Shown here piece by piece: positions 2,256-64,000 of a stretch of DNA of 64,000 nt. The DNA comes from Lepidogalaxias salamandroides (taxonomy: Eukaryota). Each line of letters starts with the position of its first letter. Within the stretch, counting starts at the first letter, position 1. The DNA lies in assembly GCA_049190665.1 (NCBI GenBank), contig CM110852.1; one strand, written 5' to 3'. The notes under the pieces are model-generated. The model did not search any database and had not been told where the DNA came from. It worked only from the letters and a program-made list of their open reading frames with translations. Both the position numbers and the translations under genes were made by a program.

Positions 2256-2295
<40 letters not shown>

Positions 2296-2960: not shown

Positions 2961-2982
2961 AAAAAGTCAAAAGTAAGCGGCC

Positions 2983-3965: not shown

Positions 3966-4085
3966 GTACAGTTTAAGGTCCACCTAATAGCTGGCTGCTG
4001 TTCCTTCCTGCTGCTTGCGTTCCTATAGCGTTGACCCGTCCGCCCCCTCTGTCGTCCTTTCTGTGTGTCTCTCTCTGTCTGTCAG

Positions 4086-4544: not shown

Positions 4545-4675
4545 GCTCCGCCTGAGGTACAGAATGAGGTCCACCTAATAGCTGGCTGCTGTTCTTTCCT
4601 GCTGCTTCCGTTCCTATAGCGTTGACCCGTCCATGCCTCTGTCATCCCTTCTGTGTGTGTCTCTCGCTCTGTCAG

Positions 4676-4954: not shown

Positions 4955-5076
4955 GGTACAGTATAAGGTTCACCTAATAGCTGGCTGCAGTTCTTTCCTG
5001 CTGCTTCCGTTCCTATAGCGTTGACCCGTCCACGCCTCTGTCATCCCTTCCGTGTGTGTCTCTCTATCTCTGTCAG

Positions 5077-5256
5077 GCTCAGGAGAGGAGGTGGAGGGAG
5101 GTGGTGCAGGAGCAGCATCTGGTTTTCCTACAGGAGCAGCGTCTGGCTGCCCTGCAGGAGCAGCGTCTGGCTGCCCTGCAGGAGGAGTGTCTGGCTGCCC
5201 TTGAGAAACGCTACCTCCGCAACGCCGCTGTCAAGACGGAGCTGAGCTCCACCTAA
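5077..5256 (+). CDS. Module D: a third terminal-exon copy (AQERRWREVVQEQHLVFLQEQRLAALQEQRLAAL...KRYLRNAAVKTELSST*)
   Basis: Same acceptor module, ctctgtcag|GCTCAGGAG, in phase 0. It ends in TAA at 5254-5256. The downstream donor has been lost (gccagg). Confidence 0.35.
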   Translation, partial: AQERRWREVVQEQHLVFLQEQRLAALQEQRLAALQEECLAALEKRYLRNAAVKTELSST

Positions 5257-5524
5257 GGCCAGGCTGCTTTGTACATAACTGTATATAATAGTAATAGATG
5301 TATAACATGATAATAGCATAGTAGTATTTTTAAGACGTATTGAACAATTTAAGTGAGTTTGTTTTATTCCCCCTAAAATCCAAACAAAAAACAATATAAA
5401 AATACACAAAAACCTCAAAAAAACATGAATTATTTATTGTCAAATGTAATTTTGTGTTTTTAACAGTATAGTCGTTAAGCTTGTTTTACAGTGGACTGGC
5501 CAGGTCTGTGTTTCTTGTCTTCAG

Positions 5525-5940
5525 GTTGGCTGATCCATCATTTACCAAAGAGGAGAAGACGGATGGAGACGAAGAGAGACGAAGAGGGAGAGATGCACAG
5601 CGATACAAGGAGAGCCCAAGACAGATGGAGATGAAGACAGCCCCAGGAGGAGAGAGATCAAGAGAAAGAGCTTCTCTAAGGTACACATGTGAAACACTGC
5701 AAAATAAGCTGCACACTGTTGTCTACTGTTGTGACAGTGCATGCTCAGTTCCTTATCTCCCTCCATCAGGCTCAGGAGAGGGGGAGGAGCAGGGTGGAGC
5801 AAGAGGAGAACCAAGAACACAGCCGCACCCCACCACCTGATGCTTCTGCTGCCGCCAGATGACCGCCACATCATGACCGGCCCAGAACACCACCGCCTCT
5901 CATTCATTTACACCCGTCACTGTGTCCAATAAAGTCACAC
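5525..5940 (+). other. Two putative 3' exons or 3'UTR of the coiled-coil gene, with the polyA signal
   Basis: The first exon runs from ttgtcttcag|GTTGGCTG... to ...ctctaag|gtacac (5525..5680) and is K/E/R-rich. The second runs from ctccatcag|GCTCAGGAGAGGGGG (5770) to AATAAA at 5928-5933. The same arrangement is present in copy 2 at 17830..18258. Confidence 0.35.
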
Positions 5941-6759
5941 ACATTGGCACACATTTCTGATTGTTGGATATTTTTTACCTCGTTTTTGGCACTGTATGAT
6001 GTGTGGTGGGGTGTGTGTGTGTGTGTGTGTATGTTGACACTTCATCCACTACCAGTGTGTTGCACCCACCTGGGTGATGCATGGCAGCCATTATGCCATT
6101 ACTCATGCCCCGTTTGGCCTAGAGTCATGAAACTTTGCACACATATGCCCCTCCTCACGAGGAACAAATTTGCCTCAAGAACCCATATATTCCGGTTACT
6201 TAGATTTTCCGCCATTTTGAATTTTGTGAAAAACACTTAAAATCTATCTCCTCCTCTATTGAGCAATCTGTATGAAACTTGGCAGACGCAATCTAGGGAC
6301 CGATATCTACAGTTCTGATTCGGCAAAAGTTTGAAAAGTCGAAAAACGGAGCCGCTATGAGCCAATGAAGATTGCGGAGGGCGTGGCTTTTCACAAAGGT
6401 GTATAACTTCTGAACGATTGGACTGAACACCACAACACTTTGTAGGCATGTCATCATACATAACCGGAGGCTAACCCTCCATGATTGGCCAAATCAAACA
6501 AAATGGGGGCGCTAGAGAGCTCATTTCCGGTTTAGGCCTAACCGCGATGCCAATTTTTCCGAAACTTTGTACAGCGGTAGAAGGGCATGCCTAGTGGCCA
6601 ATGGATAAAGATGAAGCTGATTAGCCACAGGGTGGCGCTATAACAAGGTAAAAGGCTTGAAAGTGGCTACATTTCAAACAGGCATATCTCATGCCACATT
6701 TAAACTAAATTCATGACATTTTGCACTTAAATGCTATGGCTTATTGTGCAAACTGCTCG

Positions 6760-9962: not shown

Positions 9963-10029
9963 TGACGGGTCAGTGTCCCGTGTGTGGTTTGTGTCCTTCG
10001 ACCGCGTCACATCTCCCTTCGCCCTCCAG

Positions 10030-10352
10030 GTGTCGGACACGGTGGTGGAGCCGTACAACGCCACCCTCTCCATGCACCAGTTGGTGGAGAACACGGACGA
10101 GACGTTCTGCATCGACAACGAGGCGCTGTACGACATCTGCTTCCGCACGCTCAAGCTGACCACGCCCACCTACGGCGACCTCAACCACCTGGTGTCGGCC
10201 ACCATGAGCGGCGTCACCACCTGCCTCCGCTTCCCCGGGCAGCTCAACGCCGACCTGCGCAAGCTGGCCGTCAACATGGTGCCCTTCCCCCGCCTGCACT
10301 TCTTCATCCCGGGCTTCGCCCCGCTCACGAGCCGCGGGAGCCAGCAGTACAG
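10030..10352 (+). CDS. tubb4b: Beta-tubulin exon 5 ([108 protein letters not shown])
   Basis: Acceptor ccctccag|GTG, donor TACAG|gtggga. The protein is continuous with exon 4. Confidence 0.9.
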
Positions 10353-10359
10353 GTGGGAC

Positions 10360-11430
<1,071 letters not shown>

Positions 11431-11595
11431 TAAACGTTGTGTGTCCCTGTGTTGTGCTGTTGAGAAACTAGTGAAATGATACCTGGAAAGGGCTGGGCAC
11501 AAACGGTCGCTTAGCAACCACGACACTAACGGCAGCTGCTAAGCTGATTTTGCTTCGTTTGGGGGCGGGGCTTTTCAGATGACGGGCTGTAGTAG

Positions 11596-12002: not shown

Positions 12003-14203
12003 ACTGAATGATTAATAAGCTATAAGGATGTTCAAATAAACCTTGTTAAAATACTTGTGAGAGTGTGGGAGTCAGTCGTTGGACTCGGGGGGGCTGGGTG
12101 AGGCTGCACACCTGTGGGCCAATCTGCAATCAGGCCCACAGGCTTAAACCAGCCACCTCCACACACACTCGAGGCTGAGCCCTGTCCGGATAGTACGTAC
12201 CACCTGCTCACTCATTCAACATTCATTTGGGCAATAAACCGGTTTCAACATCGCCCTGAGTCCTGTCGTCAGGGAGAGGCCCTGTAGCCACCATGTGCCT
12301 GTTCATTTGGTGGCTGTGGCAAGGGGTACGTCACAATACTGTTGATCTTTTCAGACTTTATACCTCAAATGGCCGTCAAACTGGTGCATAATCAATGGGT
12401 GTGATCTTATAGGCCCAGGGGTTCAAACGTGATCCGGTCACATTCTGGCTATTGGATTAAATCCTGAAACTGGATCAGGTCATCAAATCCTAGCTGTAAT
12501 CTGGATCAAATCTTCAAAATGCATAGTTCAAATGTACAACATTATATATAATATAATTAATTATAAAAGAAATCTGAATATAAATAAGATGTCATAAGTG
12601 TCTTCACAAAATTAATAAACACAACATTGATCACTCATTAATCAAACATGACCACTTGTCCATCTGTAACCCACATTCAACTTGTCAAAAGTCGTTTTTA
12701 ATTGACTTCTTAAATGGCGTTAAATGTGTATAATGCCACAGTATTCCTGATGTTGTTCTGTACATCCAGCAGGTGGCGCTATGTGGGCTTATGGACAGCC
12801 CGACCCGAACATGCATCACTGCAAACACACTCGTCTATAATACTCATCTATATCCCATGTCTTTTGAACCCTTAAACATCTTCCCGTCGTGTGGTGGTTC
12901 AGTATAGCATGCGTACAATAGTGTTGCAGGGTTCCTAACTTTAAAAACTCTATTTGACTCTTGCTGTGAACCCAGTATGGTGAATGTGTGCACAAACTTA
13001 AACGAACAGTGTTCTCCTGCTGCACATCTGGAAAGGTTGCGTCACTGAGCAGGGCTCTGGGAACCGGACCAGAGCCCTGCTGCCAGGGTTGGGCCCAGCA
13101 GGGGGGGTCTTATGTAAGGAGAAGCTCTTCAGTCTGCCGGGGTTCTGCGTGGTTATATACATGCTGGAAAACCCATCCCTATGTTAATGGGATGGGTTCT
13201 GCATGGTTCTATACATACTGTAGTAGAACCCATCCCTATTTTAATGGGATGGGTTCTACGTGGTTCTATACATGCTGGAGAGCCCATCGCTATTTTAATG
13301 GGATGGGTCCTACAGGGTTCTATACATGCTGGAAAACCCATCCCTATTTTAATATGATGGGTTCTGCATGGTTCTATACATGCTGTAGTAGAACCCATCC
13401 CTATTTTAATGTGATGGGTTCTGCATGGTTCTATACATGCTGTAGTAGAACCCATCCCTATTTTAATGGGATGGGTTCTGCATGGTTCTATACATGCTGT
13501 AGTAGAACCCATCCCTATTTTAATGGGATGGGATGGATGACTGGACTTTTGCATACTTGCTTACTTACATAACGTAGGAAATGGTGTTGTTAAGGTAATA
13601 CGCAGGTACAAGGTATGGTTGGTGTGAAGGCTGGACCCTCCTGCATGAATTGGTGATTTAATCCTTCATTCAGTTTGTAAGTGATGCAGGTGGGAAATAA
13701 TCCAAATGCCTTTGGAATGATGGGCTGATAGGCAGACAAATGAAAGAGAGGACTGGACTAATTGATCATATTTAATTGGCCTATAAGTTACTCACTTATA
13801 GGCAGTGGTAGACAGTAACAAAGTACATTTACTTGAGTACTGTACTTAAGTACATTTTATTTATATTGTACTTTAGACTCCACTACATTTGCGCCGGATA
13901 AGCGCGTGACACAGGCGGACGCGCCCAGCCTCACGTAAACAAACCGAGCAGTCGGGACAGCAGGTTGATAATAATGATAAATGCATGCTCCCTGCATGTT
14001 CAAAGAATTGCTACAAGACATCGGAGAGTCTCAGTATTCTCTGGTAATCGACCAAAGCACCGACGTGGCCGCAGTAAAACAGTTGTGTGCTGTAGTACGT
14101 TACTTTAGCGTCTCATTGAACAAGATTGTTTCAACTTTTTTGGGCTCAGTCGATATGCAGTATAGGCCTACTCATTCTCTCTCTCTCACTCTAACCCCCC
14201 CCC

Positions 14204-14245
<42 letters not shown>

Positions 14246-17200
14246 ATGTAACTCAACAAATGTAACTCGTATTAATTATGTTTATCTATATTTGTTTCCA
14301 TCTTTTGCTGGCAGGGAAAGAGGAGAAGCAAGAGATGCTGACAGTACTACAACTGACAGAGACAGACACCAAGAGACAACAGAGACAGACAGGGCGCCTG
14401 GCCAATCATAGCGCTTAAGGGCGGGGCTTGTCCAGAAGCGCGGCGCAATCCATAATAACGCGGGACGGATCCTGGCGAAATGGCGGCTCGCCCATAATGC
14501 AACGCGGTGAAAGTCAGCTTCTGAAGCGCGATAACAACTTAACGTCAATGTTTTTGAATTCAATAAAACCTAGAGGGCTTATTTAGTTGTTGGAGTTAGA
14601 CAGCTGGACCCTCCTGCATGAATTGGTGATTTAATCCTTCATTCAAAAATAAATGCCACGAATATACAGTTTGTAAGTGATTATGCATATCGTGTGAATT
14701 AAATGATCATGTATGGCATAATCACATCCATCAAATTGCCAGGGATGGGAAGTAACGAAGTACAAGTACTTTGTTACAGTACTAAATCGATTTTTCAGTA
14801 CTTTTGTACTTTTTGGAGTACTTATTTTTCGGACTACTTTGTACTTTTACGAAGTACATTTGAACACAAATACTGGTAGTTTCTACTCGTTACATTTTCA
14901 AAACAAAACAAAAAAGTCAAAAGTAAGCGGCCACGTGACAGACCCAACGTTCTATTGACTGGTCTCCACGCGACTCGCAGCGGAATTGCACGAACTTGAA
15001 CGACAGACGAGACGAACAAGAAAAGTTAAAACACGACGCACTTGGATTTTGTACGATTTTTTAACTACGGCAAGCGACTGGAAATCTCCCGTCATCATGA
15101 ACCTGGTGAGATTCAGCATTTTCTGTCGGCAAATATCGTGTTTTTACAAAAAAATGCCGTTTCTGATGTTTGTTTTTGAGTCGCACCAATCATGATACGC
15201 TTTGTGAGTTCATGCTTGTTTAACGAAATATATCAACTACGAAATTAAAATGTGTGGTCTAAAGAGATCCAGGAGAGGGCGCTGTGGCGCAGGTTAAACA
15301 CGTTTGCTTTCTGTAAACATGTTCAACAATCCCAAAGCAGACGTGTACGCCTGTAATGAAGATTGTAATATGAAAGGCCCTCTTTGCCTTCACATTTATT
15401 TCATGTAGAATGTGACTTTGAATGATTGGTTTTTAATACAAGTAACCTATTAAACGGTAATGAAATGCCACCCATGGTTAATTCTGTAACACACCTGATC
15501 TCTAACCATGAATACATGAGAGAATAAAATGCTTTGGAGTTGGTCTTGAGTGCCCTCTCTTGGTATCCCACACAGGAGTGTGTGCCCCTGCCACCCTGCA
15601 CCACAGACGGCCCTGATGCTGGCTCCCCTGGTCCCAGCCAGCCCTCCTCGCCCTCCCTCCCCCTGGTTCAGGGCCACGTAGACCCGCTCCTCCACGCTCC
15701 CTCCGCGCCTACACCGGCTACTCCCGGGAGAGTTTCCAGAAGGAAGCGGGTTCGGACCTTGCGTTTCCGGGACCCGGGCGATGAGCCGAGCACCGGCATC
15801 TCTGCCGTGCCTCCGATCTCGCGGCCGGCCGGCCCTCAGGGAGGCGGAGAGGAGGGGTCCTGGAGCCCTTCTGACCCCTTCTTTTCCCAGCTGGAGGACT
15901 CCTCTCTGGCAGCTGAGGTACAGTATAAGGTCCACCTAATAGCTGGCTGCTGTTCCTTCCTGCTGCTTGGGTTCCTATAGCGTTGACCCGTCCGCCCCCT
16001 CTGTCGTCCTTTCTGTGTGTCTCTCTCTGTCTGTCAGACTCAGGAGAGGAGGCTGAGGGAGATGGTGCAGGAGCAGCGTCTGGCTGCCCTGAAGGAGCAG
16101 CATCTGGCTGCCCTGGAGGAGCCGCTGGAGGAACGCTACCTCCGCAACGCTGCCGTCTTGCCGGACTGGCGCCCCCGCCGGGCCTCCTCCCCGGCCCCAC
16201 GCGACTCGGGGTCTGGGGTCTCGCCGGCTGCGGAGGAGCCCCTGAGGATCCACGGCCTCGCGGTGGAGGAGTACCAGAGCCTCTACCACTCCGTGGTGGA
16301 CCCCCTGCTGGTCACCGCCACCGGCAAGCCCCGCCAGTACTCCCTGGAGCTGGGCCGCAAGATCAAGGAGCAGCTGTTCCGGGCTCTCTACTGCCCCGGG
16401 GACCGGTCAGGGGCCGTGAGCATCCCGCAGTTTGACCTGGACGTCAGCGGTGAGCCTAGTTGCTCGCCACCCGCCGCGAAGAGGCACCGGTGCTGAGCTC
16501 CGCCTGAGGTACAGAATGAGGTCCACCTAATAGCTGGCTGCAGTTCTTTCCTGCTGCTTCCGTTCCTATAGCGTTGACCCGTCCATGCCTCTGTCATCCC
16601 TTCTGTGTGTGTCTCTCGCTCTGTCAGGCTCAGGAGAGGAGGAGGAGGGAGGTGGAGCAGCGTCTGGCTGTCCTACCGGAGCAGCGTCTGGCTGCCCTGC
16701 AGGAGGAGTGTCTGGCTGTCCTGCAGGAGCAGCGTCTGGCTGCCCTGCAGGAGGAGTGTCTGGCTGTCCTACAGGAGCAGCGTCTGGCTGCCCTGCAGGA
16801 GGAGTGTCTGGCTGTCCTACAGGAGCAGCGTCTGGCTGCCCTGCAGGAGGAGTGTCTGGCTGCCCTGCAGGAGGAGTGTCTGGCTGCCCTGCAGGAGGAG
16901 TGTCTGGCTGCCCTGCAGGAGGAGTGTCTGGCTGCCCTGCAGGAGGAGTGTCTGGCTGTCCTGCAGTAGGAGCGTCTGGCTTCCCTGGAGAAGAGCTACC
17001 TCCACAACACCGCTGTCTTGGCCGAGGTGCCGGTGCTGAGCTCCGCCTGAGGTACAGTATAAGGTTCACCTAATAGCTGGCTGCAGTTCTTTCCTGCTGC
17101 TTCCGTTCCTATAGCGTTGACCCGTCCACGCCTCTGTCATCCCTTCCGTGTGTGTCTCTCTATCTCTGTCAGGCTCAGGAGAGGAGGTGGAGGGAGGTGG

Positions 17201-18300
17201 TGCAGGAGCAGCATCTGGTTTTCCTACAGGAGGAGTGTCTGGCTGCCCTGGAGAAACGCTACCTCTGCAACACCGATGTCTTGACGGAGCTGAATTGAAA
17301 TAAGGGGAGTCAGGCGACCAGTTTGTCAAAGAAAAGCATATTTATTGGTAAAGTGCGGGGAGCGGGGGTGGGGGTGTAAGGCAACTCAAATCCTTCCCGT
17401 CTGGGGTCTGGCTTCATCCGGCCTAGGGAGAGAGGGCAGAGGAGAGCGGGTAGGGTTAGTGGGGGCGGCTAGGCCCGACTCTCAGACCTCCGAGCATTGG
17501 GCCTTGGCAATTAGCCTAATGCCGCTCACCTGTTGCTGCTTGCTCAGGCAGTGAACAGGTAATTAGGGACGTACTTGCCCTCAATTAGCTTCCCCAATAG
17601 CCTGCGTTGGGGGAAGGGTCTCTGACCGTGCTGCTGAAGGGGCCTCTGATGCCTACCCCCCCTCTGCCAGGGGCACTGGGGTGCCACACCCCTAAAAACC
17701 AAACAAAAAGCAATATAAAAATACACAAAAACCTAAAAAAAAGAATGATTTATTGTCAAATTGAATTTTGTGTTTTTAACAGTATAGTCGTTAAGCTTGT
17801 TTTACAGTGGACTGGCCAGGTCTGTGTTTCTTGTCTTCAGGTTGGCTGATCCATAATTTACCGAGGAGGAGAAGATGGATGGAGACAAAGAGAGACAAAG
17901 AGGGAGAGATGCACAGCGATACAAGGAGAGCCCAAGACAGATGGAGATGAAGACAGCCTCAGGAGGAGAGAGATCAAGAGAAAGAGCTTCTCTAAGGTAC
18001 ACATTTGAAACACTGCTAAAGTAAGTAAAATAAGCTGCACACTGTTGTCTACTGTTGTGACAGTGCATGCTCAGTTCCTTCTCTCCCTCCATCAGGCTCA
18101 GGAGAGGAAGAGGAGCAGGGTGGAGCAAGAGGAGAACCAAGAACACAGCCGCACCCCACCACCTGATGCTTCTGCTGCCGCCAGATGACCGCCACATCAT
18201 GACCGGCCCAGAACACCACCGCCTCTCATTCATTTACACCCGTCTCTGTGTCCAATAAAGTCACACACATTGGCACACATTTCTGATTGTTGGATATTTT
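12003..18300. repeat. Segmental duplication, copy 2 of the ~6 kb block
   Basis: Same content and order as 1..5990. Differences are: one fewer unit in the hairpin minisatellite; a 3-bp indel near 15003; more 48-bp coding repeats at 16680-16960; a ~400 bp unique insert at 17300-17700; and divergent last modules. Confidence 0.9.
15097..18258 (+). CDS. Paralogous copy 2 of the coiled-coil gene (gene-level span)
   Basis: ATG at 15097; exon A 15576..15917; module B 16038..16496; module C from 16628 with ~9 48-bp repeats and an in-frame TAG at 16967-16969; a divergent module D at about 17160-17300; and terminal exons ending at AATAAA near 18250. Confidence 0.4.
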
Positions 18301-19007
18301 TTACGTTGATTTGGCACTGTGCAGTACACTACACGTTTATTTTATTAAAACTAATTAAACTGTTTAGTGACAGTTCTGAATGACTAGACTCTGGGGCTGG
18401 GTGAGGCTGCACACCTGTGGGGCAACAGTAATCAAGGCCCACAGGTTAAACCAGCCACCTTCACACACTCAGGACTGAGCCCTGACGTCAGTTTCTACCA
18501 TCTGCTCAACAAACAACTCATTGTACATCTCAGCAATAAACCGCATTCAACATGGCCCTGTGTCATGTCGTCTTGGAGAGGCCCTGCAGCAGCCGTTTTC
18601 AGCTTCGGTGGCAGTAGCTAGGACTACGCTACAAAGGGTTATTAAACTTAAGCACATTCTTAAAACATGTTCCTTGTTTTCCTGAGAGAAATGTTTATTG
18701 TACATTGACATTTACAACTCAAAAAAATGAATTGGCAGAAAATGTGTCATTTTTATTACATTTAGCTTACTCAATCACAAGGAAACAATTGCATTGTGAA
18801 AACCTCATTCAAAACCATTGATGAACAATTAAAAACAATCATCACCATTACCCATCTATCTGATACACAACCAACTTAAGTCACATAACCACAACCAGAA
18901 AAACTAGTGGAAAAGAACCCCTTCATACAAAGGAACAAGGTCACCAATACACATACAGCCCACTGCAAACACTGACACAACTCCACATGCACAGCATAGC
19001 ACACCGC

Positions 19008-19498: not shown

Positions 19499-48335
<28,837 letters not shown>

Positions 48336-48337
48336 GC

Positions 48338-48487
<150 letters not shown>

Positions 48488-49339
48488 AGAGGTGAGATAA
48501 AGGAAGTGAAAAACCTACCTAAAAACCTACACACACACAAAAAAAACCTACACACTAAAAAAACCTACCTAAAACCTGTGTAAAGCCTACGAGTTGCACA
48601 TAGACCAGTTTCATTATAGAAAACGGGATAATTGTTTTTAATGATAACAGCCTACCTGATCTTTAATCCAGGTAGATTACTTTCATAAAGTAAAGAAACA
48701 CTTGATATTAAATATTTTCGTCTGACAAGTTAAAGTCAATAGTCTAAGTTATAGCTCTATGTACACTCATATAGCTTACTTTACCTTCTTTATTTCCCTA
48801 GATGAGATGTCTTCCAGGGAAAAAGAAAGAAAAGGTTGACAGCAGTCCAGAAACGCTGATTTCCTGGTTGACAGCAGTCCAGACACGCCCCCCTCTTGAT
48901 TGACAGCAGTCCAGACACGCCCCCTCGTCACACAGCAGGAGCTGCTGCCAGAGCCATAGAAAGACAGAGTTGCGTCAATGGAGGGTCCAAAATGATATTC
49001 TTAATGGCCCCACGACCAAGGTCGGTGGAATTTGCTTTCAGTACAACGTGGACAACGTGTCATTGACAAATAGACAAATAACACAGACAGCAACACATGA
49101 CAGGTACAGCAGACGCACAAGGTGAGGACCATAGACAATATTTACATGATTAACACAGAGGTATTTAGATTAAAGTGCAGGTGCGTCGGGATTAGTGCAA
49201 AGAGTTCAGAGTTCTTATGGCGGTGGGGAAAAAGCTGTTTTTGAAGCAGGATGTTCTGGTGGACAGGGATCTGTAGGCCTCCTAGATTATTTTTTTATTT
49301 ATTTTTTGTGCCCTTTGATTGTGTGTTGTATGTATATAT

Positions 49340-50520
49340 ATTAGGGCTGTCAGTTAAACGCGTTATTAACGGCGATAACGCAAACCCATTTTAACGGCGT
49401 CAATTTTTTTGACGCCGTTAAAAAAAAATGGATACGCCCCCCCCCCCCGTCAACAATCGCTAGCGGGGATATACGCGCCACCCCCCCCCCCCCGTCAACA
49501 ATCGCTAGCGGGGATATACGCGCCACCCCCCCCCCCCTGTCAACAATCGCTAGCGGGGATATACGCGCCAGCACCCCCCCCCCCCCCCCCGTCAACAATC
49601 GCTAGCGGGGATATACGCGCCACCCCCCCCCCTCCCCCCCGTCAACAATCGCTAGCGGGGATATACGCGCCACCCCCCCCCCCTCCCCCCGTCAACAATC
49701 GCTAGCGGGGATATACGCGCCCCCCCCCCCCCCCCCCCCGTCAACAATCGCTAGCGGGGATATACGCGCCACCCCCCCCCCCCCCGTCAACAATCGCTAG
49801 CGGGGATATACGCGCCACCCCCCCCCCCCCCCCGTCAAGAATCGCTAGCGGGGATATACGCGCCACCCCCCCCCCCTCCCCCCCGTCAACAATCGCTAGC
49901 GGGGATATACGCGCCACCCCCCCCCCCCTCCCCCCCGTCAACAATCGCTAGCGGGGATATACGCGCCACCCCCCCCCCCTCCCCCCGTCAACAATCGCTA
50001 GCGGGGATATACGCGCCCCCCCCCCCCCCCCCCGTCAACAATCGCTAGCGGGGATATACGCGCCACCCCCCCCCCCCCGTCAACAATCGCTAGCGGGGAT
50101 ATACGCGCCACCCCCCCCCCCCGTCAAGAATCGCTAGCGGGGATATACGCGCCACCCCCCCCCCCTCCCCCCCGTCAACAATCGCTAGCGGGGATATACG
50201 CGCCACCCCCCCCCCCCTCCCCCCCGTCAACAATCGCTAGCGGGGATATACGCGCCACCCCCCCCCCTCCCCCCCGTCAACAATCGCTAGCGGGGATATA
50301 CGCGCCAGCACCCCCCCCCCCCGTCAACAATCGCTAGCGGGGATATACGCGCCAGCACCCCCCCCCCCCCCCCCGGCAACAATCGCTAGCGGGGATATAC
50401 GCGCCCCCCCCCCCCCCCCGCCAACAATCAACAATCGCTAGCGGGGATATACGCGCACGTTAACTATGACATTATGTGATTAATCATGATTAAATATTTT
50501 AATCGATTGACAGCTCTAAT
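49340..50520. mobile_element. Non-autonomous TIR element (1181 bp) carrying an internal ~44-50 bp minisatellite with variable-length poly-C tracts
   Basis: Terminal inverted repeats ATTAGGGCTGTCA (49340) and TGACAGCTCTAAT (50520). Subterminal TTAACG/CGTTAA motifs and an internal palindrome taacggcgtcaa-ttttttt-ttgacgccgtta. The interior holds ~22 tandem units of gtcaacaatcgctagcggggatatacgcgcca(C)10-22. Flanked by (TA)n on both sides. No ORF. Confidence 0.65.
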
Positions 50521-50529
50521 ATATATATA

Positions 50530-51571
50530 TCTACCGGGCCCGTTGTCGGCACAAAGTCAAACACGTTCCCAGTGGGTGTTGGACTCCGCCAAGGCTGCCC
50601 TTTGTCACCGGTCCTGTTTGTGGTATTCATGGACAGGATCTCTAGGCGCAGCCGAGGTGAGGAGAGTGTCCGGTTCGGTGACCTCAGAATTGCGTCTCTG
50701 CTTTTTGCGGATGACGTGGTTCTGCTGGCTTCATCGGACCGTGACCTTCAGCACGCACTGGGGCGGTTTGCAGCCGAGTGTGAAGCGGCCGGGATGAGGG
50801 TCAGCACCTCCAAGTCTGACGCCATGGTTCTCTGCCGGAAAACGGTGGGTTGCTCCCTCCAGGTTGGGAATGAGTCCCTGCCCCAAGCGAAGGAGTTCAA
50901 GTATCTCGGGGTCTTGTTCACGAGTGAGGGTAAAATGGAGCGTGAGATCGACAGGCGGATCGGTGCAGCGTCAGCAGTAATGCGGGCGCTGTACCGGACC
51001 GTCGTGGTGAAGAGGGAGCTGAGCCGGAAGGCGAAGCTCTCGATTTACCAGTCGGTCTACGCTCCTACCCTCACCTATGGTCATGAGCTCTGGGTAGTGA
51101 CCGAAAGAACAAGATTGCGGATACAAGCGGCCGAAATGAGCTTCCTCCGTAGGGTGGCTGGGCTCAGCCTTAGGGATAGGGTGAGGAGCTCAGCCTTAGG
51201 GATAGGGTGAGGAGCTCAGCCTTAGGGATAGGGTGAGGAGCTCAGACATCAGGAGGGAGCTCAGAGTAGAGCCGTTGCTCCTTTGCGTCGAAAGGAGCCA
51301 GCTGAGGTGGTTCGGGCATCTGATCAGGATGCCCCCCGGACGCCTCCCTTTGGAGGTTTTCCGAGCACGTCCAACTGGGAGGAGACCACGAGGTAGACCC
51401 AGGACCCGCTGGAGGGATTATATATCCCTCCTGGCCTGGGAACGCCTCGGGATCCCCCAGGAGGAGCTGGAAAGCGTCGCTGGGGAGAAGGACGTCTGGA
51501 ATAGCCTGCTCAGCCTACTGCCCCCGCGACCCGACTCGGATAAGCGGTGGACAATGGATGGATGGATGGAT

Positions 51572-51625
<54 letters not shown>
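50530..51625 (+). mobile_element. 5'-truncated L2-clade LINE: RT C-terminal half plus 3' tail with (GGAT)n(AT)n
   Basis: ORF 50572..51210 contains the RT motifs GLRQGCPLSPVLF and LLFADDVVLL (YXDD-type box). ORF 51233.. contains RWFGHLIRMPPGRLP..RPRGRPRTRWRDY, typical of the L2/CR1-type ORF2 C-terminus. It ends in ggatggatggatggatggat(at)n at 51555-51625. An internal 26-bp triplication lies at 51160-51240. Confidence 0.8.
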
Positions 51626-54600
51626 GCTGCTGCTAGTTTCCAATGTTTGGAACTCATGATCCGCGATTGCTCTAAAATAATTGGCCCGAAGGACTAAACG
51701 GAGATGAGGCAACTCTCTGTCTCTATGGCTCTGGCTGCTGCAGTGGAACTACAAGTGAGGGATAACGCCCAGGTGTCCTTTATCAGGGATTAATGGACGA
51801 CATTAATCCTTGATAATGGACACCTTGAAGGGAATTATCCCGCTTATACCATGGTCACTTACCAAAGATTAAAAACAAGGTTTGGTGCTTTATGTTTCGG
51901 GGCAATTCGCTCTAAAAATAAAAACTTTTGGGCAACGCTTTATCTGGTTCCCTGGAAACACCCGTGGGTCTGAATAATACCTGGAACACAATTAGTCTCA
52001 CCCATACTCCTACAAACAGTAGTTTACAACTCCAGCCAATAGGACAAACCTTAGATATAACTTGGCAAAAACGTTGAATTAAAATTCAATTCAACGTTTC
52101 CATTTATTGTGAAATTCGATAGCGATATAAGCAAGTCCGGCATATCGGCCTTTGAAGGAGAGTGTTTGACAGCTGGACTGGACTGGCCATGATGGTCGGG
52201 ACATTGGAAGACGACAAGACGTGGCTCTGTTCTCTTCTCTCCCAATAATTGATGACCTGTCACCGACATCTGACGGCTCTCCAGGTCGGAGTCTGAGAGC
52301 CGACCTACTTCAGAGGCTGTGGTTTGTGAAAGACCCACCTGAAAGGTACAATGATTATAGATGATTATATTTTGGGGATGGAGGGAGACAGTACTACATA
52401 TTTAGTCTCTGTCATATATGTTTATATAGGACTGCATTAATACAAGTTGTGTGTTATGGTAGCTTTACGATGGCAAGAGGCTGTTTTACAGCAGATCTGT
52501 GCAGATCTGTGCTTCATTCATTCTGTTGTTGCAAGTTGATGCAGACAAATAAAGAAACTCAACCCTCGATCATTCTATAGTCTCATACAAAATTATTAGA
52601 CTGTCATGTCTTTAATAGCTGATAGACATTAAGTGTAATCACCTCTTCTCTGATCTTTGGAGGCCACGGTGCAATTCAGGTGGCGGTAGAAAGATTTAGC
52701 ATCTGATGGACATTTGGAAATGCATGATGGACATCTTGAAACTTGCGACCGGACACAGCATAAACCCTCTCAGGTTTTCCTTGTCTGGGTCATTTGGGTC
52801 TTTACGATTCTTTGTTTGTGGAAATGAGTTCAAGGTCCGACTCAGAGATACAGGGATGGTGGAGGCTGGCATCTTTACCGCTTTTCCTGTAACGTTTAAG
52901 TATGGCTTTAAACACCGCATTGCTGGTCTTGAATCTGGTGTCAGTCATGACATTGAATTCCATTAAATGGTGGTTAATACTGGCCCTCAGACTCCTTAGA
53001 CTGGCAACGCTGTACTCCCCCTCCGCCTTGGTGGACCGGACCCCCGCAGGGTCTCATTCAGAACATTGGCGGTGTAGTTTTCAAAGTTGGAGTCATTGGT
53101 TTTGTTCACTGCGCTGAACTTCACAAAGGGCAAACTGAGGCAGCGAGGGAATTGTGCACGGATGAGTCATGCCTTTACGATCCTTCTGACCACTGTGAGC
53201 CTGTTCCCTACTGTTCCTCCTGCCACCCCTCAGAGGAACTCATAAAAGTACAACTGGACGTCCACTATTCTAAAGGACCAGCACCGGTGGCCCGGGAAGT
53301 CATGCAGATCCATCAGCAGCATCTTTCTCTTCCATGTCTCTTCAGCTCCCCAGCATATTAGAAAGGGTTGTACTATCATCCACACCGAGAACCTTAAGAT
53401 GAGACTCTGGTCCACCACACTGTGGCTGGGACCAGGGTTTATATTCTCTGTCCCCTATTTTACTACCAGGTGGGATGTTTATTAGCCATTACAAGCCATG
53501 ATACATCTGGGAGAACACTCGCACTTGTGATGTCACTAGAGGATAGATTTTGACATGGCTTGTAATGGCTAATCACCATCACACCTGGTGGAAAAATAGG
53601 GGCCCTTTAAAAGAGACAGTTGGCTTGCTATTAACTACGTAGAAAAATTGTTTAAAAGGTGAATGCTATTCGTATTACCGTCTCACTGCATTCTTTGTTT
53701 GTGATCATGCATGAAATTCTCCTGTAAACAGGAAACTGTGTGTGTGTGTGCCTGTGTGTGTGTTTCTGTTAAAGAATGCTGCTATCTCAGATAAGCAGTT
53801 TTCCACACTGTCTCCCATATGATTTGCATCTGGATCCATAAAGCCGCCTTCCAGTAGGGGCAGATTTGCTAGGAGGATATGATACGGTCCACATACTGTC
53901 CATCCGTACTAAAGAGTCAATAGCTTCATCAATATACAGTACCACTCAAAGACGATGAGCGATTGTATTAAATGATTAATTAGCTCACCTACTTGCTTAG
54001 TGACGCGGCTAAACCATCACTTGTCGTGCATTGTGTAACATAATGCTGCTCAGCACTTTGCCACCGGTGTTCGACCCAATTGAGTTTCTTTAAAACCGCC
54101 CCATCCTTCTGTTGAACGCTAAGTTTGTTTTCTGCTCGGTGAGTTCTTGTGTGTGTGTGTGTGTGTGTATGTGGGCACGTGCGCTGCATTGAAGCACTCT
54201 GTGTACATCCGGAAACGCTGAGTTACATATTTTTGGTGTACGGGGGGCCAGCTGCGTGGTTGGATTAATGACCCTGGGACACATGTTCTTCTCCACCCGC
54301 ACTGTCCTCTTTGATGAATCGCTGTGCGTTGGAAACAACAACCTGCAGGCCGGGGTCTCTGCTGCTGACGCCACGTCCCCTACTACTGGTGTTTAGATTC
54401 CCTCTGTTCTCGTCTCTCATCCAGCAGGATCCAGAGAGGAGAGAGGGGAGAGAGAGAGAGGTATGTTGGGGTCTTTACAAAGTGGTCGTGTTTCAACTTG
54501 GCGCTGACAAAAAGCCCTCTAGTCCTGCTATTCCTCTCCCCTCGGTTATCTCTCTCTCTCTCTTTCTCTCTGAGATCTGCCAGCTGGGAAAGGGCGTACG

Positions 54601-57581: not shown

Positions 57582-57770
<189 letters not shown>

Positions 57771-58059
57771 ATAACTGACAGGACAGGAGAGAGGGAGGGA
57801 AGGATGGGTGAGGGAGGGAGGGAGATGGAGGGAGATGGAGGGAGGGAGGGATGGGTGAGGGAGGGAGGGAGACCAGTGTGACTCAGCCGTCCTATAAGAT
57901 CTCAGACTGGGGAGCCAGGATGGGACATTACCTTGTAACCAGAAGGAGTGCTGGTTGAGACTCATACCCAAGTAGAGAGAAGTATCAGGAGCAGCATCAC
58001 CAGCTGAGGAGCAGCGAGGAGATGGTGTGTGTGCGTGAGGCTGAGCAGTAGTGTGTGGG

Positions 58060-61000
58060 ATGGAGAAGCAGAAAGCCCCTGGGTCCGGGGGCGTGGGGGG
58101 CTTGGTGACGAGTGGTTGGAGAGCCCTGCTACTGCCCCAGCTCACCCGCCAGTCCCTGTACGTGTACGGCAGTGAGATCGCTGTGGAGGAGGAATGCATC
58201 CGCCAACTACAGAGTGGAGTCCTGGTGATCCACCCCTTCAGCATCATAAGGTACTGCTACTACTTCTACTATCTAGTACTTTATCTAGTACAGCATGCCA
58301 TCCACCCCTTCAGCCTCATAAAGTACTGCACTACTACTACTACTACTTTGTCTGGAACAAACTCCCTGTTCACATCAGACAAGCACCCTCAGTTGAGAGC
58401 TTTAAGAAGCGCCTTAAAACATACTTTTACACCCTTGTTTTTAATTAAAAAAGGCATCTTTGATTATCTTTTTATTTTGTATTTTTTTAATTTATTTTTA
58501 TACTTGTTTTACTGTAATGGTCTTATTTAGTTTTCATTCTCTGTCACTGCTGCTATTATTTGCATGTTTTTTTTTATTGCTGTTTTTATTCAGCAATATT
58601 TGCTGTAAAGTACTTTGAGCTACATTTTGTGTTATGAAAGGTACTATACAAATAAAGTTTATTATTATTATTATTACTACTACTTTATCTAGTACAATGG
58701 CTTCAGTGTGTAGTACTCGTCATCCCCCACTTCAGGTACTGTACTATCTACTGCTAGTACTATAGTCTTTCAAATCAGACTTTAGATTAATATCTAAAGT
58801 CTGATGGCAGACAAGCTCAAATCTGGGTGAACGGGGCGTTTCACTTTCTTTTGCTTTACATTTGTTTTGATCACTCATGGTGCTGTAGGCGGGGATTTGT
58901 AAACACGTAAAAACACAAACTCAGCCAGCACTAGTAAATTGTAAAACGTGTCTGTAAAGGTTTCAAATGTAGGAAACAAATGTATTAAAATCCCCTTCTG
59001 AAAGCTTCATCCACTCGTGTGAATGAGTTTTATTTGGTAGAATATCTCAGTAACGAGTTGCAGTTGTTGGTTTCTGGCCCAGGTTCTGTTCCAGTCAAGA
59101 TTACTAGTACTAGTACTAGTACTACTACTACTACTACTACTATGTAGTACTTGCTATCTATATAGTACAATAACTACAGAGTGGAGTACTGGTCATCCAC
59201 CCCTTCGGCCTCATAAGGTATTGTACTACCTCTACTACTACTACTACTACTACTACTAATGCTACTACTACTACTACTACTACTACTATCTAGTACTACT
59301 ATTACCACTCCTATCTAGTACCTTATCTAGTACAATAACTACAGAATGGAGTCCTGGAGTCTACATGATTCTGATTACCTAGAAAGCACAATAAAATACA
59401 ATAAAAGTATTACTTTGATTACCCAGTACAATAAGGTATTACTGTCGTGTCTTCTAATAATAAGGTACTGCTGTCAATACAAATGGAAGAAAGTATGCAT
59501 ATTTTATGAGCTCTGGATAGATGGCAAGTATAAATATCCATAGACAGTTAAAGAAGTGTCTTCATCTCTAATCCAATATCTGAAAACCCTGAACTCCCTT
59601 GAACTTGAACGTGATGTCACATCACCCCGGTCACCTTACAGAACCGTCTGCCAAAAATACATTAGATCACAGACTGCACCCTTGACCACAATACCACCAT
59701 TTACAGTAACTCTCTCTCTATATATATATATTTGAACAGATTTGAACCTGTAACACTGTAATTTTTTATAGAAACCGTCCCCAACAGATTTCTCAAACCG
59801 TAAAATTCAGTACAGTGGGGACCCAAATGTGGACCAGAATAAAACAATTTATAGAGAAAAATTCCCTGGATGGATTGACTCGTGGATGGGCCATGGATTT
59901 GAGAAACTTTCTAGTTCAGATATTTTTTAATGGAGTAAATATCTGCAGTAGAAAAGTGACATATTGCCAGTTTAAAATGTGTACATCTCTGAACATGGAG
60001 TCAGGCATATACGGTATACTGTAATATTTCCAGGAGTTACTACATCATGTGCATGATGGCCATCACGTTCCTGAACCTTATCGGAATCCCCATGGAGATC
60101 GCCTTCCTGGACGGGGTGAACGGCCTGGGCTGGGAGGGCTTCAACGTCTTCTCCGACACGTTGTTCCTCATCGATGTGGCTCTCAACTTCCGCATGGGCA
60201 TCATACCAGAGGACGGCGAGGTCCCCACAAACACACACACACACACACACACCATCCCCATCTGTAATCCCCTCTCAATACACGAACAAACCAGATTAAC
60301 AATCACAACCCCCATCCCAAAATCTACGGTATGTTGAGTTATGTTGTTGTAACACGACAACGATGTTGGGTCAAATTACAAATACCTAGAGGCATGACGT
60401 TTTTCAATTAGGCCGTAGATAGATGATATGTCGCCTGTTGTCCTCTGCTCTAGTCTGCTGAGGTGACTCGTGCCAGCTTCTTAGAAAACCTCCCATGTGC
60501 ACCTGTGCTGTGTGTGCCCTCATCTTTACTCAGGACCTTAGCTGTGGTGTATGTGTGTGTGTGTGTGCATATGTGCGTGTGTGTGCATATGTGCGTGCAT
60601 GTGTCCTCATGTGCCATGACGTTCGGAGCTGTGTGTGTGTGTGAATGTGTCCTTACGTGAACTGATGTTCTGCACTGTGGAATGTGTGTGCGTGTGTGTT
60701 CATGTATCTCCATGCATATTGATATTCTAAGCTGTGTATGTTTTTGTTGGTTTTTCCAGTCCATAATTTCAAGTCCACCAAGACCTTCTGAAATATGAAT
60801 CTACATGTTTAAGTCATGATCTGACAACATTGTCATTTAATCTTTTCACTTCAGCGGCATTCACTTTTTTGTTTGTCATTTTTGTCATTGTTTGGTCCTG
60901 TATGACAGGTTGCCATTTTGGATCTCAAGCAGATCCGGGTGAGCTATCTGAGAAGCTGGTTCATACCGGATGTGATCGCAGCATTCCCCATCGGATACAT

Positions 61001-63618
61001 CCTCTTCTTTGCGGTAAAATTCAAACATTGACCTCATGAATTGACCTCATCTGGTCTGGAGTGAATTATAACAAATTAAAAACATTGTGAATCTTGCTCA
61101 CCCATGTGTTTTCTTGCTACAGGACTTACAGTACAACAACAAGGATAACCCCTCCAAGACCAACAGAATGATGCGAATCCTCATGTTCGTGCGAATCCTC
61201 AGCCTCATACGTCTGGTGCGGGTGTCTCGACTTGTGCGCTTCTTCAACGAAGTGGAGAAAGTGAGTTTGGAAGTGCGACACCAGTTCTCAACCGTCTCAA
61301 ATTGCAGACACCTTCATCGAGAACCCAGCCCTGTGTGACAGCATGCGAGAGTTGGAGGAATCACTGTGTGTTCCTCTGGGAATAGGACATAGAGTTCTGG
61401 AATGTTAGGAAAGGTTCTATTTTTTATTTAGTCAGGTACCTTGATCTTCCGAATTCCAAGTTACCAAATTCCGAGTTTCGACTCCAAGCGATCTCTACTG
61501 ATTGTATAAGCACTCAAAGACACCTAGATCTACCTACCTAATAGTTAGGGCTGCGTTTCCCGATACCGGCATACCTTGAGTTTTCGCGATGTCCGTCACC
61601 GATTGGCTACGCGGACGCGCACACAAAACGTTTCCTGCCGCGTAGCCAATCGGTGACGGACATCGCGAAAACTCAAGGTATGCCGGTATCGGGAAACGCA
61701 GCCTAGATCTATCTAATAGTCGGACATGTTGTCGTTGGTAAGATAGGATAAGATGTACTTTATTTAGAGTAGTAGAAAGAAAGTAAAGGACAGCAATAGC
61801 TAGTAATCACCCTCCCCTTGCTCTCTCAGGTGTCCAATGCCAACCTGGAGGTGATCTCTCTGTTCTTCCGCATCCTGTCCCTCTTCATGATGATCTTCCT
61901 GCTCTGCCACTGGAATGGCTGCATCCAGTACTTTGTCCCCATGCTGGAAGAGTTCCCCGCCGACTGCTGGGTCCGCAAGGAGAACCTCATGGTAAAGCCA
62001 TGGAACCACTCATGTCATGGACTCATAGAACCATGGAATCATATCATGGAACCATGCAATCATGCAAGTGATGGACCCTTGGATTTTAATCATGGAATAA
62101 TGTAATGGAACCATATCATGAAATATGCATTCTGACATTATAGAGTGATCTCTGCGGTCAATCCTTTGTTTGCAGAATGCCACAGTGAGTGTTAAATACT
62201 CCTGGGGGGTTTTCCGTGCGCTGTCCCAGATGATCGCCCTCTCCTATGGCTCAATGGATGCCCCTACCAGTAAGCTTCTCTTTATATTACTATACTGCAT
62301 ACTGTATGTTATGTATACACCAGGAAAAACCTAAGACTACTGCTTACTTCATTGGTTGGTGATCAATTGTAATGTAAAATAAACTCTGTGCTCTTCTGAT
62401 CTCCTCTGTCAGACTATGTGGAGTTGTGGATTGTGATGGTCAGCATGATCTCTGGATGCATGATGTACACCGTGCTGGTGGCTAACGCTACAACCATGAT
62501 AGCCAACACAGACCCCACTGCCAAGGAGTACATGAGCAAGGTCTTAATGGGTCTTTAAAGTATAACAGCAGACCAGTAAAGTGTGACATTACAGCTACTG
62601 ATTCCATCTTCAGATACTTAGCGTTATTGGTTAGTGATGCAGGTTCTTTTAAGTGGTGAAAACTCTTGTTGTTCCCATGTAGATGTGCCGTTTGGAACAC
62701 TACATGACCTTTATGAAGTTACCCCCTGAGCTGCAGCTGCGGATCAGCAAGTACTACCAGGCACGCTATGGGGGGAAGTGGTTCGATGAGAACAGCGTCA
62801 TTGATACGGTTTCCACGGCGCTGAAAGAGGTAAATGCTGTGTCAGCTCGTTTACCGCCAGGCTAATTCTGGAGTTAAATTAAACTAAACCAAGATAAGAT
62901 AAACAAAACCAAACTTCTAAACTAATCGAAGATAAGACTATTTAAAATAAGATAAAATAACCTATGCTAATCATATCATATAATAAAATAAGATAATCTC
63001 AAATAAGATAAGCTAAACTAGGATGAGATAAACCAACCTAAGCTAATGCTCTAGGGTGCGTTTCCCGATACCGGCATACCTTGAGTTTTCCCAATGTCCG
63101 TCACCGATTGGCTACGCGGACGCGCACACAAAACGTTTCCTGCCGCGTAGCCAATCGGTGACGGACATCGCGAAAACTCAAGGTATGCCGGTATCGGGAA
63201 ACGCAGCCCTAAGCTAACATGAGATAAGTTAAGATAAACTAAGCTAAGATAAGCTAAAAAATAAACTCAGCTAAAATAAGCTAAACTAAGATGAACTAAG
63301 ATACACTTAATAGATACACTTAATAGATAACAGATAATTATAGCTTAGTTTAAACTAAGCTGTGCTTACTTTCCTCACAGGAAATGCTGCTGGCCATGTG
63401 CAGCCGGCTGCTGAAGAAGGTTCCCATGTTCCAGAACCAGGACGTCCACTTCATCAACGCCGTGTTGCTCAAGCTCAGCTATGAGGTGTTCATGGAGGGA
63501 GATGTGATCGTCCGGGAGGATGCGCCCGGAGACCGCATGTTCTTCATCGACCACGGGGAGGTAGGCTTGGAGGCAGACTCCTTCCAGAGGGACCTCTGCG
63601 ATGGGGACTACTTTGGAG
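58060..63618 (+). CDS. HCN-like cyclic-nucleotide-binding-domain 6TM channel (HCNL-like), 9 coding exons, 3' end outside the window
   Basis: Exons: 58060-58250 (MEKQKAPGSGGVGGLVTSGWRALLLPQLTRQSLYVYGSEIAVEEECIRQLQSGVLVIHPFSIIR); 60034-60220 (SYYIMCMMAITFLNLIGIPMEIAFLDGVNGLGWEGFNVFSDTLFLIDVALNFRMGIIPEDGE); 60909-61013; 61123-61260 (S4: DLQYNNKDNPSKTNRMMRILMFVRILSLIRLVRVSRLVRFFNEVEK); 61830-61991 (..LLCHWNGCIQYFVPMLEEFPADCWV..); 62176-62269 (pore: NATVSVKYSWGVFRALSQMIALSYGSMDAPT); 62413-62540 (S6); 62683-62829 (C-linker: ..KLPPELQLRISKYYQARYGGKWFDENSVID..); 63381-63618 (CNBD: ..VPMFQNQDVHFINAVLLKLSYEVFMEGDVIVREDAPGDRMFFIDHGEVGL..GDYFG-). All junctions are GT-AG with consistent phases. The protein is collinear with HCN1 from HPYSDFRFYWD through the CNBD. 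Confidence 0.85.
61548..61703. mobile_element. Near-perfect palindromic MITE with TA target-site duplication (second copy at 63054-63209; related diverged copies at ~34610-34680 and ~35050-35180)
   Basis: GGGCTGCGTTTCCCGATACCGGCATACCTTGAGTTTTCGCGATGTCCGTCACCGATTGGCTACGCGG-acgcgcacacaaaacgtttcctg-CCGCGTAGCCAATCGGTGACGGACATCGCGAAAACTCAAGGTATGCCGGTATCGGGAAACGCAGCC. The arms are ~67 bp. Flanked by TA on each side in both copies, consistent with a Tc1/mariner-type (Stowaway-like) MITE. The copies lie in channel-gene introns 4 and 8. Confidence 0.75.
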
Positions 63619-64000
63619 GTGCGTTCAATTCAATTCAATTCAAATAACTTTTCCGTTAGGAACTTTGTTCGCATGGTACGAGTTACAGTGCATTAGGACA
63701 TGTGAGACAGACAACATGCAAGTACAAGACAACAAACAAGTGCATGTTAAAAGCAGCGTGAAGTGACCAAGTCTGGTCTAAAATGTGGTATGAGGTCCAA
63801 AAAATTTTGAAATTACTAAAATAACAGAGGATGTTGGTGCAGAGTGTGTGTTGTGTCTGAGGTAGTCTGCTGACAGGATGTAGGCTGTGGGGATAAGCCT
63901 GCCGTTAAGCCAACTATTTCAGTCGGAATTCTCAGCTATCTATCTGCGTGTTACAGTTTTCAAAGTCCCTGTCGCTATGTGAAACAACAACATTCCCGAT

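Follow-up and report, generated by a model that had tools for sequence, protein, structure and literature searches.

The 64,000-nucleotide stretch analyzed here (the window; contig CM110852.1 of assembly GCA_049190665.1, Lepidogalaxias salamandroides) carries near its 3' end, on the + strand between positions 58060 and 63618, nine exons of a gene for an HCN-like channel. We regard this gene as almost certainly an intact teleost ortholog of HCNL2, annotated in other fish as hcn5, and as copy A of the two hcn5 copies that occur in Gadiformes. The identification with HCNL2 rests on motifs, on phylogeny and on the zebrafish hcn5. The exons are listed below, with S1 to S6 standing for the transmembrane segments and CNBD for the cyclic nucleotide-binding domain.

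Exon 1, 58060-58250, + strand: start codon ATG at 58060-62, residues 1-64 with the short N-terminus and the HCN domain, GT donor at 58251.
Exon 2, 60034-60220, + strand: 187 nt; S1, the S1-S2 loop and S2 including the conserved motif SDTLFLID, bounded by AG/GT.
Exon 3, 60909-61013, + strand: 105 nt; the S2-S3 linker and S3 (FPIGYI).
Exon 4, 61123-61260, + strand: 138 nt; the S3-S4 loop and the S4 voltage sensor (61165-61242).
Exon 5, 61830-61991, + strand: 162 nt; the S4-S5 linker, S5 and the start of the turret.
Exon 6, 62176-62269, + strand: 94 nt; the turret with an NAT sequon, the pore helix and the filter ALSYG, GT donor at 62270-71.
Exon 7, 62413-62540, + strand: 128 nt; S6 and the start of the C-linker.
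Exon 8, 62683-62829, + strand: 147 nt; C-linker.
Exon 9, 63381-63618, + strand: 238 nt; the end of the C-linker and the first ~58 residues of the CNBD, up to ...DGDYFG, GT donor at 63619.

Joined by script and by hand, the nine exons give 1,390 nt, or 463 codons with 0 stops, and all internal boundaries of this nine-exon hcn5 model are AG/GT without any frameshift. The lengths of exons 2-9 (187, 105, 138, 162, 94, 128, 147 and 238 nt) match exactly those of two independently annotated Arctogadus genes (copies A and B), and the N-terminus, MEKQKAPGSGGVGGLVTSGWRALLLPQL, is the same as in the Lota lota ortholog (P0122). The final exon, which corresponds to residues 465-523 of the ortholog, has no tblastn match in 63619-64000, and the equivalent intron in Arctogadus is ~1 kb long. 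The hcn5 gene runs past the end of the window, so that the window holds its 5' nine-tenths and the last exon lies beyond.

In a phmmer search against all solved structures, residues 11-463 of the encoded protein aligned over their full length with HCN4 (E = 1.5e-117) and with HCN1 (E = 1e-113), a likeness to HCN channels that, by these values, is far beyond chance. Spanning 450 residues, the match to known structures also settles the fold. Pfam finds Ion_trans_N (PF08412; residues 20-62, nt 58117-58245, E = 2.4e-15), Ion_trans and a partial cNMP_binding, the CNBD being cut by the window end. With the HCN domain, S1-S6, C-linker and CNBD in collinear order, the predicted protein is a member of the HCN branch of the CNBD-channel superfamily. 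The N-terminus before S1 has ~63 residues and contains the HCN domain. S4 reads RMMRILMFVRILSLIRLVRVSRLVRF (residues 176-201, nt 61165-61242), and in the structure-sequence alignments Met182 (61183-61185) lies opposite the third S4 Arg of both HCN1 and HCN4. Exon 6 encodes SQMIALSYGSMDAPT, in which ALSYG occupies 62236-62250 and Ser284 (TCC, 62242-62244) lies opposite the first Gly of CIGYG. The S4 and filter strings of the window protein are seen again in more than 40 orthologs, and SQMIALSYGSMD is invariant in more than 40 acanthomorph sequences. The preliminary description of this locus, made from the letters of the window, had already named the HCN-like architecture with S1-S6, C-linker and CNBD, the Ser in place of the first filter Gly, the Met in place of the third S4 Arg and a short N-terminus of ~60 residues, and all of these are borne out; it had also picked the correct exon 6, but this exon ends at 62269, directly before its GT donor.

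The window was also searched by tblastn with five HCN/HCNL proteins (gadiform A, gadiform B, an HCNL1-side protein, goldfish HCNL1 and urchin HCN), and no second HCN-like gene or alternative exon 6 was found in the 64 kb. Likewise, a six-frame scan of the window for x[GSAT]YG gave no other CIGYG or pore-like exon. Two further regions of the channel differ from HCN. S3 of the window protein reads FPIGYI, as compared with PVDYI/PVDIL in HCN and HCNL1. More generally, the conserved S3 Asp is replaced by Gly in teleost HCNL2 (PIGYI/PVGYI) and is kept in HCNL1, in the HCNL1-side paralogs and in non-teleost HCNL, which makes an HCNL2-specific change in the countercharge network of the voltage sensor possible. 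The CNBD of orthologs reads GEICVLTKGKHLATARA, as compared with GEICLLTKGRRTASVRA in HCN1, and the phosphate-binding cassette, a segment outside the window, is KGKHLATARA in the full-length Lota ortholog versus KGRRTASVRA in HCN1/HCN4, with Arg-Thr changed to His-Leu.

We searched the window protein against a collection of 5.8 billion proteins and tabulated S4 and the filter for 120 matches. The best matches are gadiform (Boreogadus, 96%; Arctogadus, 95%; Muraenolepis, 91% locally and 95% over aligned columns), and the next best are a long series of acanthomorph proteins that carry the NCBI name 'hyperpolarization activated cyclic nucleotide-gated potassium channel 5' (hcn5). Annotated orthologs in Gadus, Lota, Arctogadus and Merluccius show 95-96% identity with the window protein, and in many fish, close relatives among them, the same gene is annotated as hcn5, 'HCN1-like' or 'HCN3-like'. 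In the table of 120 matches, the third S4 position is Met in every member of the hcn5 group, and the filter varies by lineage, being ALSYG in acanthomorphs, AISYG in ostariophysans, QISYG or QIAYG in salmonids and pike, and AVSYG in clupeids; a separate cypriniform group has WISTK and similar filters, and the goldfish HCNL1 group has WISTK. The HCNL subfamily was defined by the S4 Met together with the missing CIGYG, with WPFLE and WISTK as HCNL1 filters (Wobig et al. 2020, PNAS 117:13783, PMC7306766), and the HCNL2 filter motifs listed in that study are AISYG, QISYG and ALSYG, with the S4 Met present in all HCNL2. Zebrafish hcn5 (NP_001418275), which belongs to the same 90% cluster as carp hcn5, reads KMMRILMF...AISYG. 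The window protein is 70.7% identical with carp hcn5, 42-44% with cypriniform (carp/goldfish) HCNL1 and 40-41% with human HCN1/HCN4.

A neighbor-joining tree was built from 444 columns with 200 bootstraps, with the human HCN1 and HCN4 cores taken from alignments with PDB entries and urchin HCN as the outgroup. The window protein falls within the teleost hcn5 clade with 100% support; human HCN1, human HCN4 and urchin HCN are split from all HCNL-type sequences (100%), and cypriniform HCNL1 forms a clade of its own (100%). Our trees are distance-based, with human HCN1 and HCN4 as the only vertebrate references for canonical HCN and with HCNL1 represented by cypriniform sequences. Because clade placement, identities and filter motif agree, the window gene is identified as HCNL2/hcn5. 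An HCNL channel was what the preliminary description had proposed, and phylogeny, identity and motifs all agree with that proposal (the same defining features are used in PMC7306766). Whether the gene was the hcnl1 ortholog or a further paralog had been left open there; it proves to be not hcnl1 but HCNL2 (hcn5), as an extra gadiform copy. The phylogeny of S1-CNBD that had been recommended as a check places the protein outside HCN1-4 at 100% bootstrap, and a canonical HCN with a different exon 6 did not emerge.

Gadiformes have two hcn5 copies, which in Arctogadus lie on one chromosome, 13.5 Mb apart. When the A-type proteins of Gadus morhua, Lota lota, Merluccius and Coryphaenoides were added to the tree from the cluster listing, clade A (the window and six gadiform genera) and clade B (Arctogadus, Merluccius and Coryphaenoides) each received 100% support, and A+B are monophyletic with respect to other acanthomorphs (96.8% support). 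Arctogadus copy A (OZ177893.1, 21.1 Mb) has PARP4 upstream on the opposite strand. The window is in collinear order with this locus; its minus strand has VIT and VWA fragments of the PARP4 type, and its non-coding DNA is only ~75% identical to that of Arctogadus. Arctogadus copy B, at 7.55 Mb, has both flanks in common with the single-copy hcn5 locus of Centroberyx and retains remnants of an upstream tandem HCN-like gene. Because B shares the Centroberyx flanks, it is copy B that keeps the ancestral position, and the window copy A has moved. The ancestral hcn5 neighborhood is thus missing from the window, where PARP4 adjoins the gene as it does in Arctogadus A; this marks a derived paralog and does not exclude the gene from hcn5. 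Copy A is, as far as its sequence and surroundings tell, a dispersed duplicate made at the DNA level, with its introns kept and placed head-to-head with PARP4. Because of the 13.5-Mb spacing in Arctogadus, we reject tandem duplication as the way in which the gadiform pair arose.

The ratio of nonsynonymous to synonymous substitution rates (dN/dS) of the window gene versus Arctogadus A is 0.06 at dS 0.39, and 0.05 over S1-S6. Between the gadiform paralogs, dN/dS is 0.03-0.05 in the membrane core and 0.17-0.27 in the C-linker/CNBD (0.27 versus 0.04 in the core when the window gene is compared with copy B). Copy A is, to judge by these ratios, under strong purifying selection. The window protein has ~10 substitutions that no other A copy shows and is about equidistant (94.6-96.1%) from the A copies of Gadus, Lota, Merluccius, Coryphaenoides and Muraenolepis, forming its own branch; by these affinities it would come from a separate gadiform lineage or one very close to the gadiforms. 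No description of a gadiform hcn5 duplication was found in the searchable literature.

A tandem arrangement is also seen around hcn5 in other genomes. In Centroberyx (locus L003, 183-5728) hcn5 has a tandem neighbor upstream, another HCN-like gene of greater divergence, and at the Arctogadus B locus (L002, 6308-6790) only a CNBD-like remnant of this tandem partner is left. In Coilia, the locus tags ACEWY4_022945 and ACEWY4_022946 are adjacent. This suggests that the HCNL1-side and HCNL2 genes may be an ancestral tandem pair.

Other identities for the window gene were considered. That it is the ortholog of the characterized proton channel HCNL1 can be discounted with near certainty: both have the S4 Met and short termini and lack CIGYG, but identity is 42-44% to HCNL1 as opposed to 71% to carp hcn5, the hcn5 clade with its 100% support leaves HCNL1 out, and the filter by which HCNL1 members are recognized is WPFLE or WISTK and not xxSYG. 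Even more far-fetched is a canonical HCN1-4 gene whose SYG arose as an artifact of splice prediction. Nothing besides the shared architecture speaks for it, whereas the protein has 40-41% identity with HCN1/HCN4 and sits on a separate branch at 100% bootstrap, the window offers no other HCN-like exon or CIGYG-encoding frame, and exon 6 is flanked by canonical AG/GT sites and, at 94 nt, is as long as in annotated orthologs that read ALSYG. CIGYG and an unbroken series of first-to-fourth S4 charges, both marks of canonical HCN1-4, are absent, and so is the Arg-Thr cassette, as judged from the Lota ortholog. It is also highly improbable that copy A is a decaying redundant duplicate, that is, a pseudogene in the making. 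The derived and relocated state of copy A, its ~10 private substitutions and the decayed copies of the exon-1 donor region in intron 1 (described below) would be in line with decay, but the nine exons are free of stops and frameshifts, dN/dS is 0.06 at dS 0.39, the functional motifs are all intact and the A copy has been kept in at least six gadiform genera.

The introns of the window gene contain repeats of their own. Over 58205-59371, in intron 1, the last ~45 nt of exon 1 together with the GT donor recur in tandem as decayed copies, with a (TAC)n microsatellite after each. One such copy is located at 58277-58328 (67% identical), partial ones are located at 58686-58733 and 59324-59371, and the copy at 59172-59223 is 90% identical to the end of exon 1, still encodes QSGVLVIHPFGLIR and keeps the GT. 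A 15-residue echo of exon 1 in this intron was also picked up by tblastn. These copies could act as cryptic or alternative donors. In the annotated Muraenolepis protein, 'SLI' is doubled at the exon-1 junction. Introns 4 and 8 carry two copies (~61551-61705 and ~63056-63207) of a near-perfect palindromic element of ~150 nt that resembles a miniature inverted-repeat transposable element, and the palindrome core GTCACCGATTGGCTACGCGG has 4 occurrences as compared with 0 expected by chance.

As for function, we lean, by analogy with HCNL1, toward the reading that HCNL2 provides a hyperpolarization-activated proton path through the voltage sensor and has a silent pore and a ligand-insensitive CNBD. 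HCNL2 would form a tetramer whose subunits have the HCN domain, S1-S6, the C-linker and the CNBD. S4 would shift on hyperpolarization, and in each voltage-sensing domain the gap that arises where Met182 takes the place of the third Arg would become a proton-selective path. With Ser instead of the first Gly of GYG, the central pore would not conduct, and with His-Leu for the phosphate-binding Arg-Thr, as seen in full-length orthologs, the CNBD would be insensitive to cyclic nucleotides. The window protein shares the S4 gap of HCNL1 and the conserved S2 motif SDTxFxxD. The HCNL1 current of zebrafish is opened by hyperpolarization, and its reversal tracks the proton Nernst potential (PMC7306766). 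Restoring the third Arg (M169R) abolishes the proton current while gating currents remain, and M169C is blocked by MTSET; the current is sensitive to 2GBI and ClGBI, both blockers of Hv1, and resists the pore blocker ZD7288; it is unchanged when the filter is replaced by AAA, and cAMP and cGMP have no effect (PMC7306766). The filter CISYG makes human HCN4 non-conducting and dominant negative, and a Gly-to-Ser change silences Kv pores (both cited in PMC7306766). An enrichment of HCNL2 transcripts has been reported for hair cells of zebrafish (PMC7306766), and HCNL2 is reported in herring sperm (PMC7533707); testis expression of the window gene is uncertain.

Several points count against a proton path in HCNL2. 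We infer proton conduction by extrapolation from HCNL1, a paralog at ~43% identity, and HCNL2 itself has never been recorded; heterologous expression of HCNL2 was unsuccessful, and its proton conduction was put forward as speculation by the authors (PMC7306766). The voltage sensor of HCNL2 has the S3 Asp-to-Gly change, which is absent from HCNL1. Furthermore, the phosphate-binding part of the CNBD lies outside the window, and the loss of the cassette rests on orthologs. Finally, the conservation of the pore domain argues that HCNL2 still needs it for something, since a pore that is simply dead should drift, as that of HCNL1 does. Among teleost HCNL2, mean pairwise identity reaches 91% for S5, 90% for the turret and 80% for the pore helix plus filter, as compared with 78.5% over the whole protein, and the S1-S4 region is 90-93% identical; among cypriniform HCNL1, the corresponding values are 59% in S5, 49% in the filter, 50% in S6 and 67% over the whole protein. 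Because the HCNL2 pore domain is conserved while the HCNL1 pore drifts, the former may be a working or a structurally required pore. The conservation may also reflect a need in assembly or gating, since HCNL1 constructs without the pore domain are non-functional (PMC7306766).

Across teleosts, purifying selection on the HCNL2 pore domain (S5, turret, pore helix and SYG filter) is at least as strong as that on the voltage sensor, and HCNL2 may be more than an HCNL1 with a weaker pore defect. It is on the whole doubtful, though by no means negligible, that the SYG pore of HCNL2 is put to functional use, be it as a further route of permeation or as a part that gating cannot do without. If it is, the A/B pair, with near-identical membrane cores and a diverged C-linker/CNBD, would resemble regulatory subfunctionalization of an uncharacterized channel type. 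We consider it unlikely that HCNL2 keeps a working central pore in which SYG passes cations, perhaps with altered selectivity, instead of or beside the proton path. Such a pore would be consistent with a pore domain that is at least as conserved as the rest of the protein in all teleost HCNL2 and is the least conserved part in HCNL1, with SQMIALSYGSMD unchanged across the acanthomorphs, with a dN/dS of 0.03-0.05 over S1-S6 even between the gadiform paralogs, and with basal members of the HCNL clade (sturgeon and coelacanth) that lack the third S4 Arg and have an intact GYG. However, according to work cited in PMC7306766, Kv pores no longer conduct once this Gly is Ser, and HCN4 with CISYG is both non-conducting and dominant negative; the conservation could also stem from tetramer assembly or gating coupling. 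A little less unlikely is that HCNL2 is a silent or modulatory subunit, which would work only in heteromers with the other hcn5 copy, an HCNL1-side paralog or HCN1-4 and would tune or suppress the current of its partner in a dominant-negative manner. The failure of HCNL2 alone on heterologous expression (PMC7306766) and the dominant-negative HCN4 CISYG subunits (cited in PMC7306766) would fit such a role, and the tandem of an HCNL1-side gene and hcn5 in many fish (Centroberyx L003, Coilia) would make co-expression plausible. On the other hand, the invariance of the S4 Met and of all of S1-S4 (90-93%) exceeds what a pure pore-poisoning subunit would need, and the gadiform B locus keeps only remnants of the tandem partner. 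The proton path through the voltage sensor remains the reading that we prefer.

The window gene can be compared with known channels. With HCNL2/hcn5 (zebrafish NP_001418275) it shares the clade (100%), the Met at the third S4 Arg, ALSYG and the exon structure, and the orthologs are ~520 residues long, with short termini and a phosphate-binding cassette without Arg-Thr. It differs in being a second, gadiform-specific copy beside PARP4, outside the ancestral neighborhood, and in its own ~10 private substitutions and a C-linker/CNBD diverged from copy B (dN/dS 0.27 versus 0.04 in the core). HCNL1, the sperm proton channel of zebrafish, carp and goldfish (XP_002662296), likewise has the HCN architecture, a Met in the S4 ladder, no CIGYG and short termini, but it is 42-44% identical, has a fully degenerate and variable filter in a weakly conserved pore domain and keeps the S3 Asp, and function has been demonstrated for HCNL1 alone. 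HCN1-4 (5U6O, 6GYN, 7NMN and 8INZ) share the collinearity from the HCN domain to the CNBD, a Ser at the fifth S4 position, the S2 motif SDTxFxxD and an N-glycosylation sequon in the turret. Relative to HCN1-4, at 40-41% identity, the third S4 Arg has become Met, CIGYG has become ALSYG, RT has become HL in the CNBD of orthologs, and the long N- and C-terminal tails are lacking. HCN4 CISYG and the mutant Kv channels (cited in PMC7306766) have the same replacement of the first filter Gly by Ser, but those are disease or engineered mutants of channels that conduct, whereas the Ser is here the fixed wild type across teleosts. In the proposed model HCNL2 would resemble Hv1 in proton permeation through the voltage-sensing domain, and HCNL1 shares with Hv1 the blockers 2GBI and ClGBI; Hv1, however, is not a member of the family, lacks both a pore domain and a CNBD, opens on depolarization and has only three S4 arginines.

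Outside teleosts, several HCNL members (Huso P0072, Acipenser P0088, Latimeria P0093, and Amia P0078 and P0097) resemble intermediates. In sturgeon and coelacanth the third S4 Arg is replaced by Leu and GYG is intact (GVGYG, CIGYG), and in Amia the Met occurs together with GISYG or GIPYG. This pattern suggests that the S4 change may have preceded the degeneration of the pore.

The family, the S4 Met and the exact ALSYG motif were already published in 2020, and to that extent the finding is already known. What is added here is that Gadiformes have two hcn5/HCNL2 genes, of which the window gene is a relocated copy under strong constraint, and that the pore domain of HCNL2, unlike that of HCNL1, is strongly conserved, which bears on what HCNL2 conducts. 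Both the gadiform duplication and the contrast in pore constraint appear undescribed in the searchable literature, in which HCNL2 is mentioned by two papers only, and both are incremental. Natural HCNL2 variants are possibly useful as constructs, as HCNL2 resists heterologous expression.

The remainder of the window contains other genes and repeats. A segment of ~6 kb is duplicated at 1-5995 and 12004-18320, with 94-98% identity and a spacing of 12 kb, and each copy carries a DUF4662 open reading frame (4065-4544 and 16017-16496) with internal proline- and leucine-rich repeats. Between the two copies, at ~9970-11440 on the + strand, lie exons for a beta-tubulin (Tubulin and Tubulin_C, E = 1e-30), with a minisatellite of 23-nt units at 10365-10964 between the exons. 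On the - strand, an open frame of 466 residues at 23732-25132 has no Pfam match and is very rich in proline, with PPPPPPP runs and internal repeats; a related segment is found at 25585-26576. The PARP4-like gene extends over ~37000-54500 on the - strand, with VIT/VWA fragments and a BRCT-like open reading frame (47362-47751); it is head-to-head with hcn5 and collinear with the PARP4 of Arctogadus. It contains a reverse-transcriptase fragment of a long interspersed nuclear element (50572-51697, + strand) and a tandem array of ~48-nt units (49437-50456). In the intergenic region between PARP4 and hcn5, (GA)n, (GACA)n and (GGGA)n microsatellites are densely packed at 57590-57870, 200-450 nt upstream of the hcn5 start codon.

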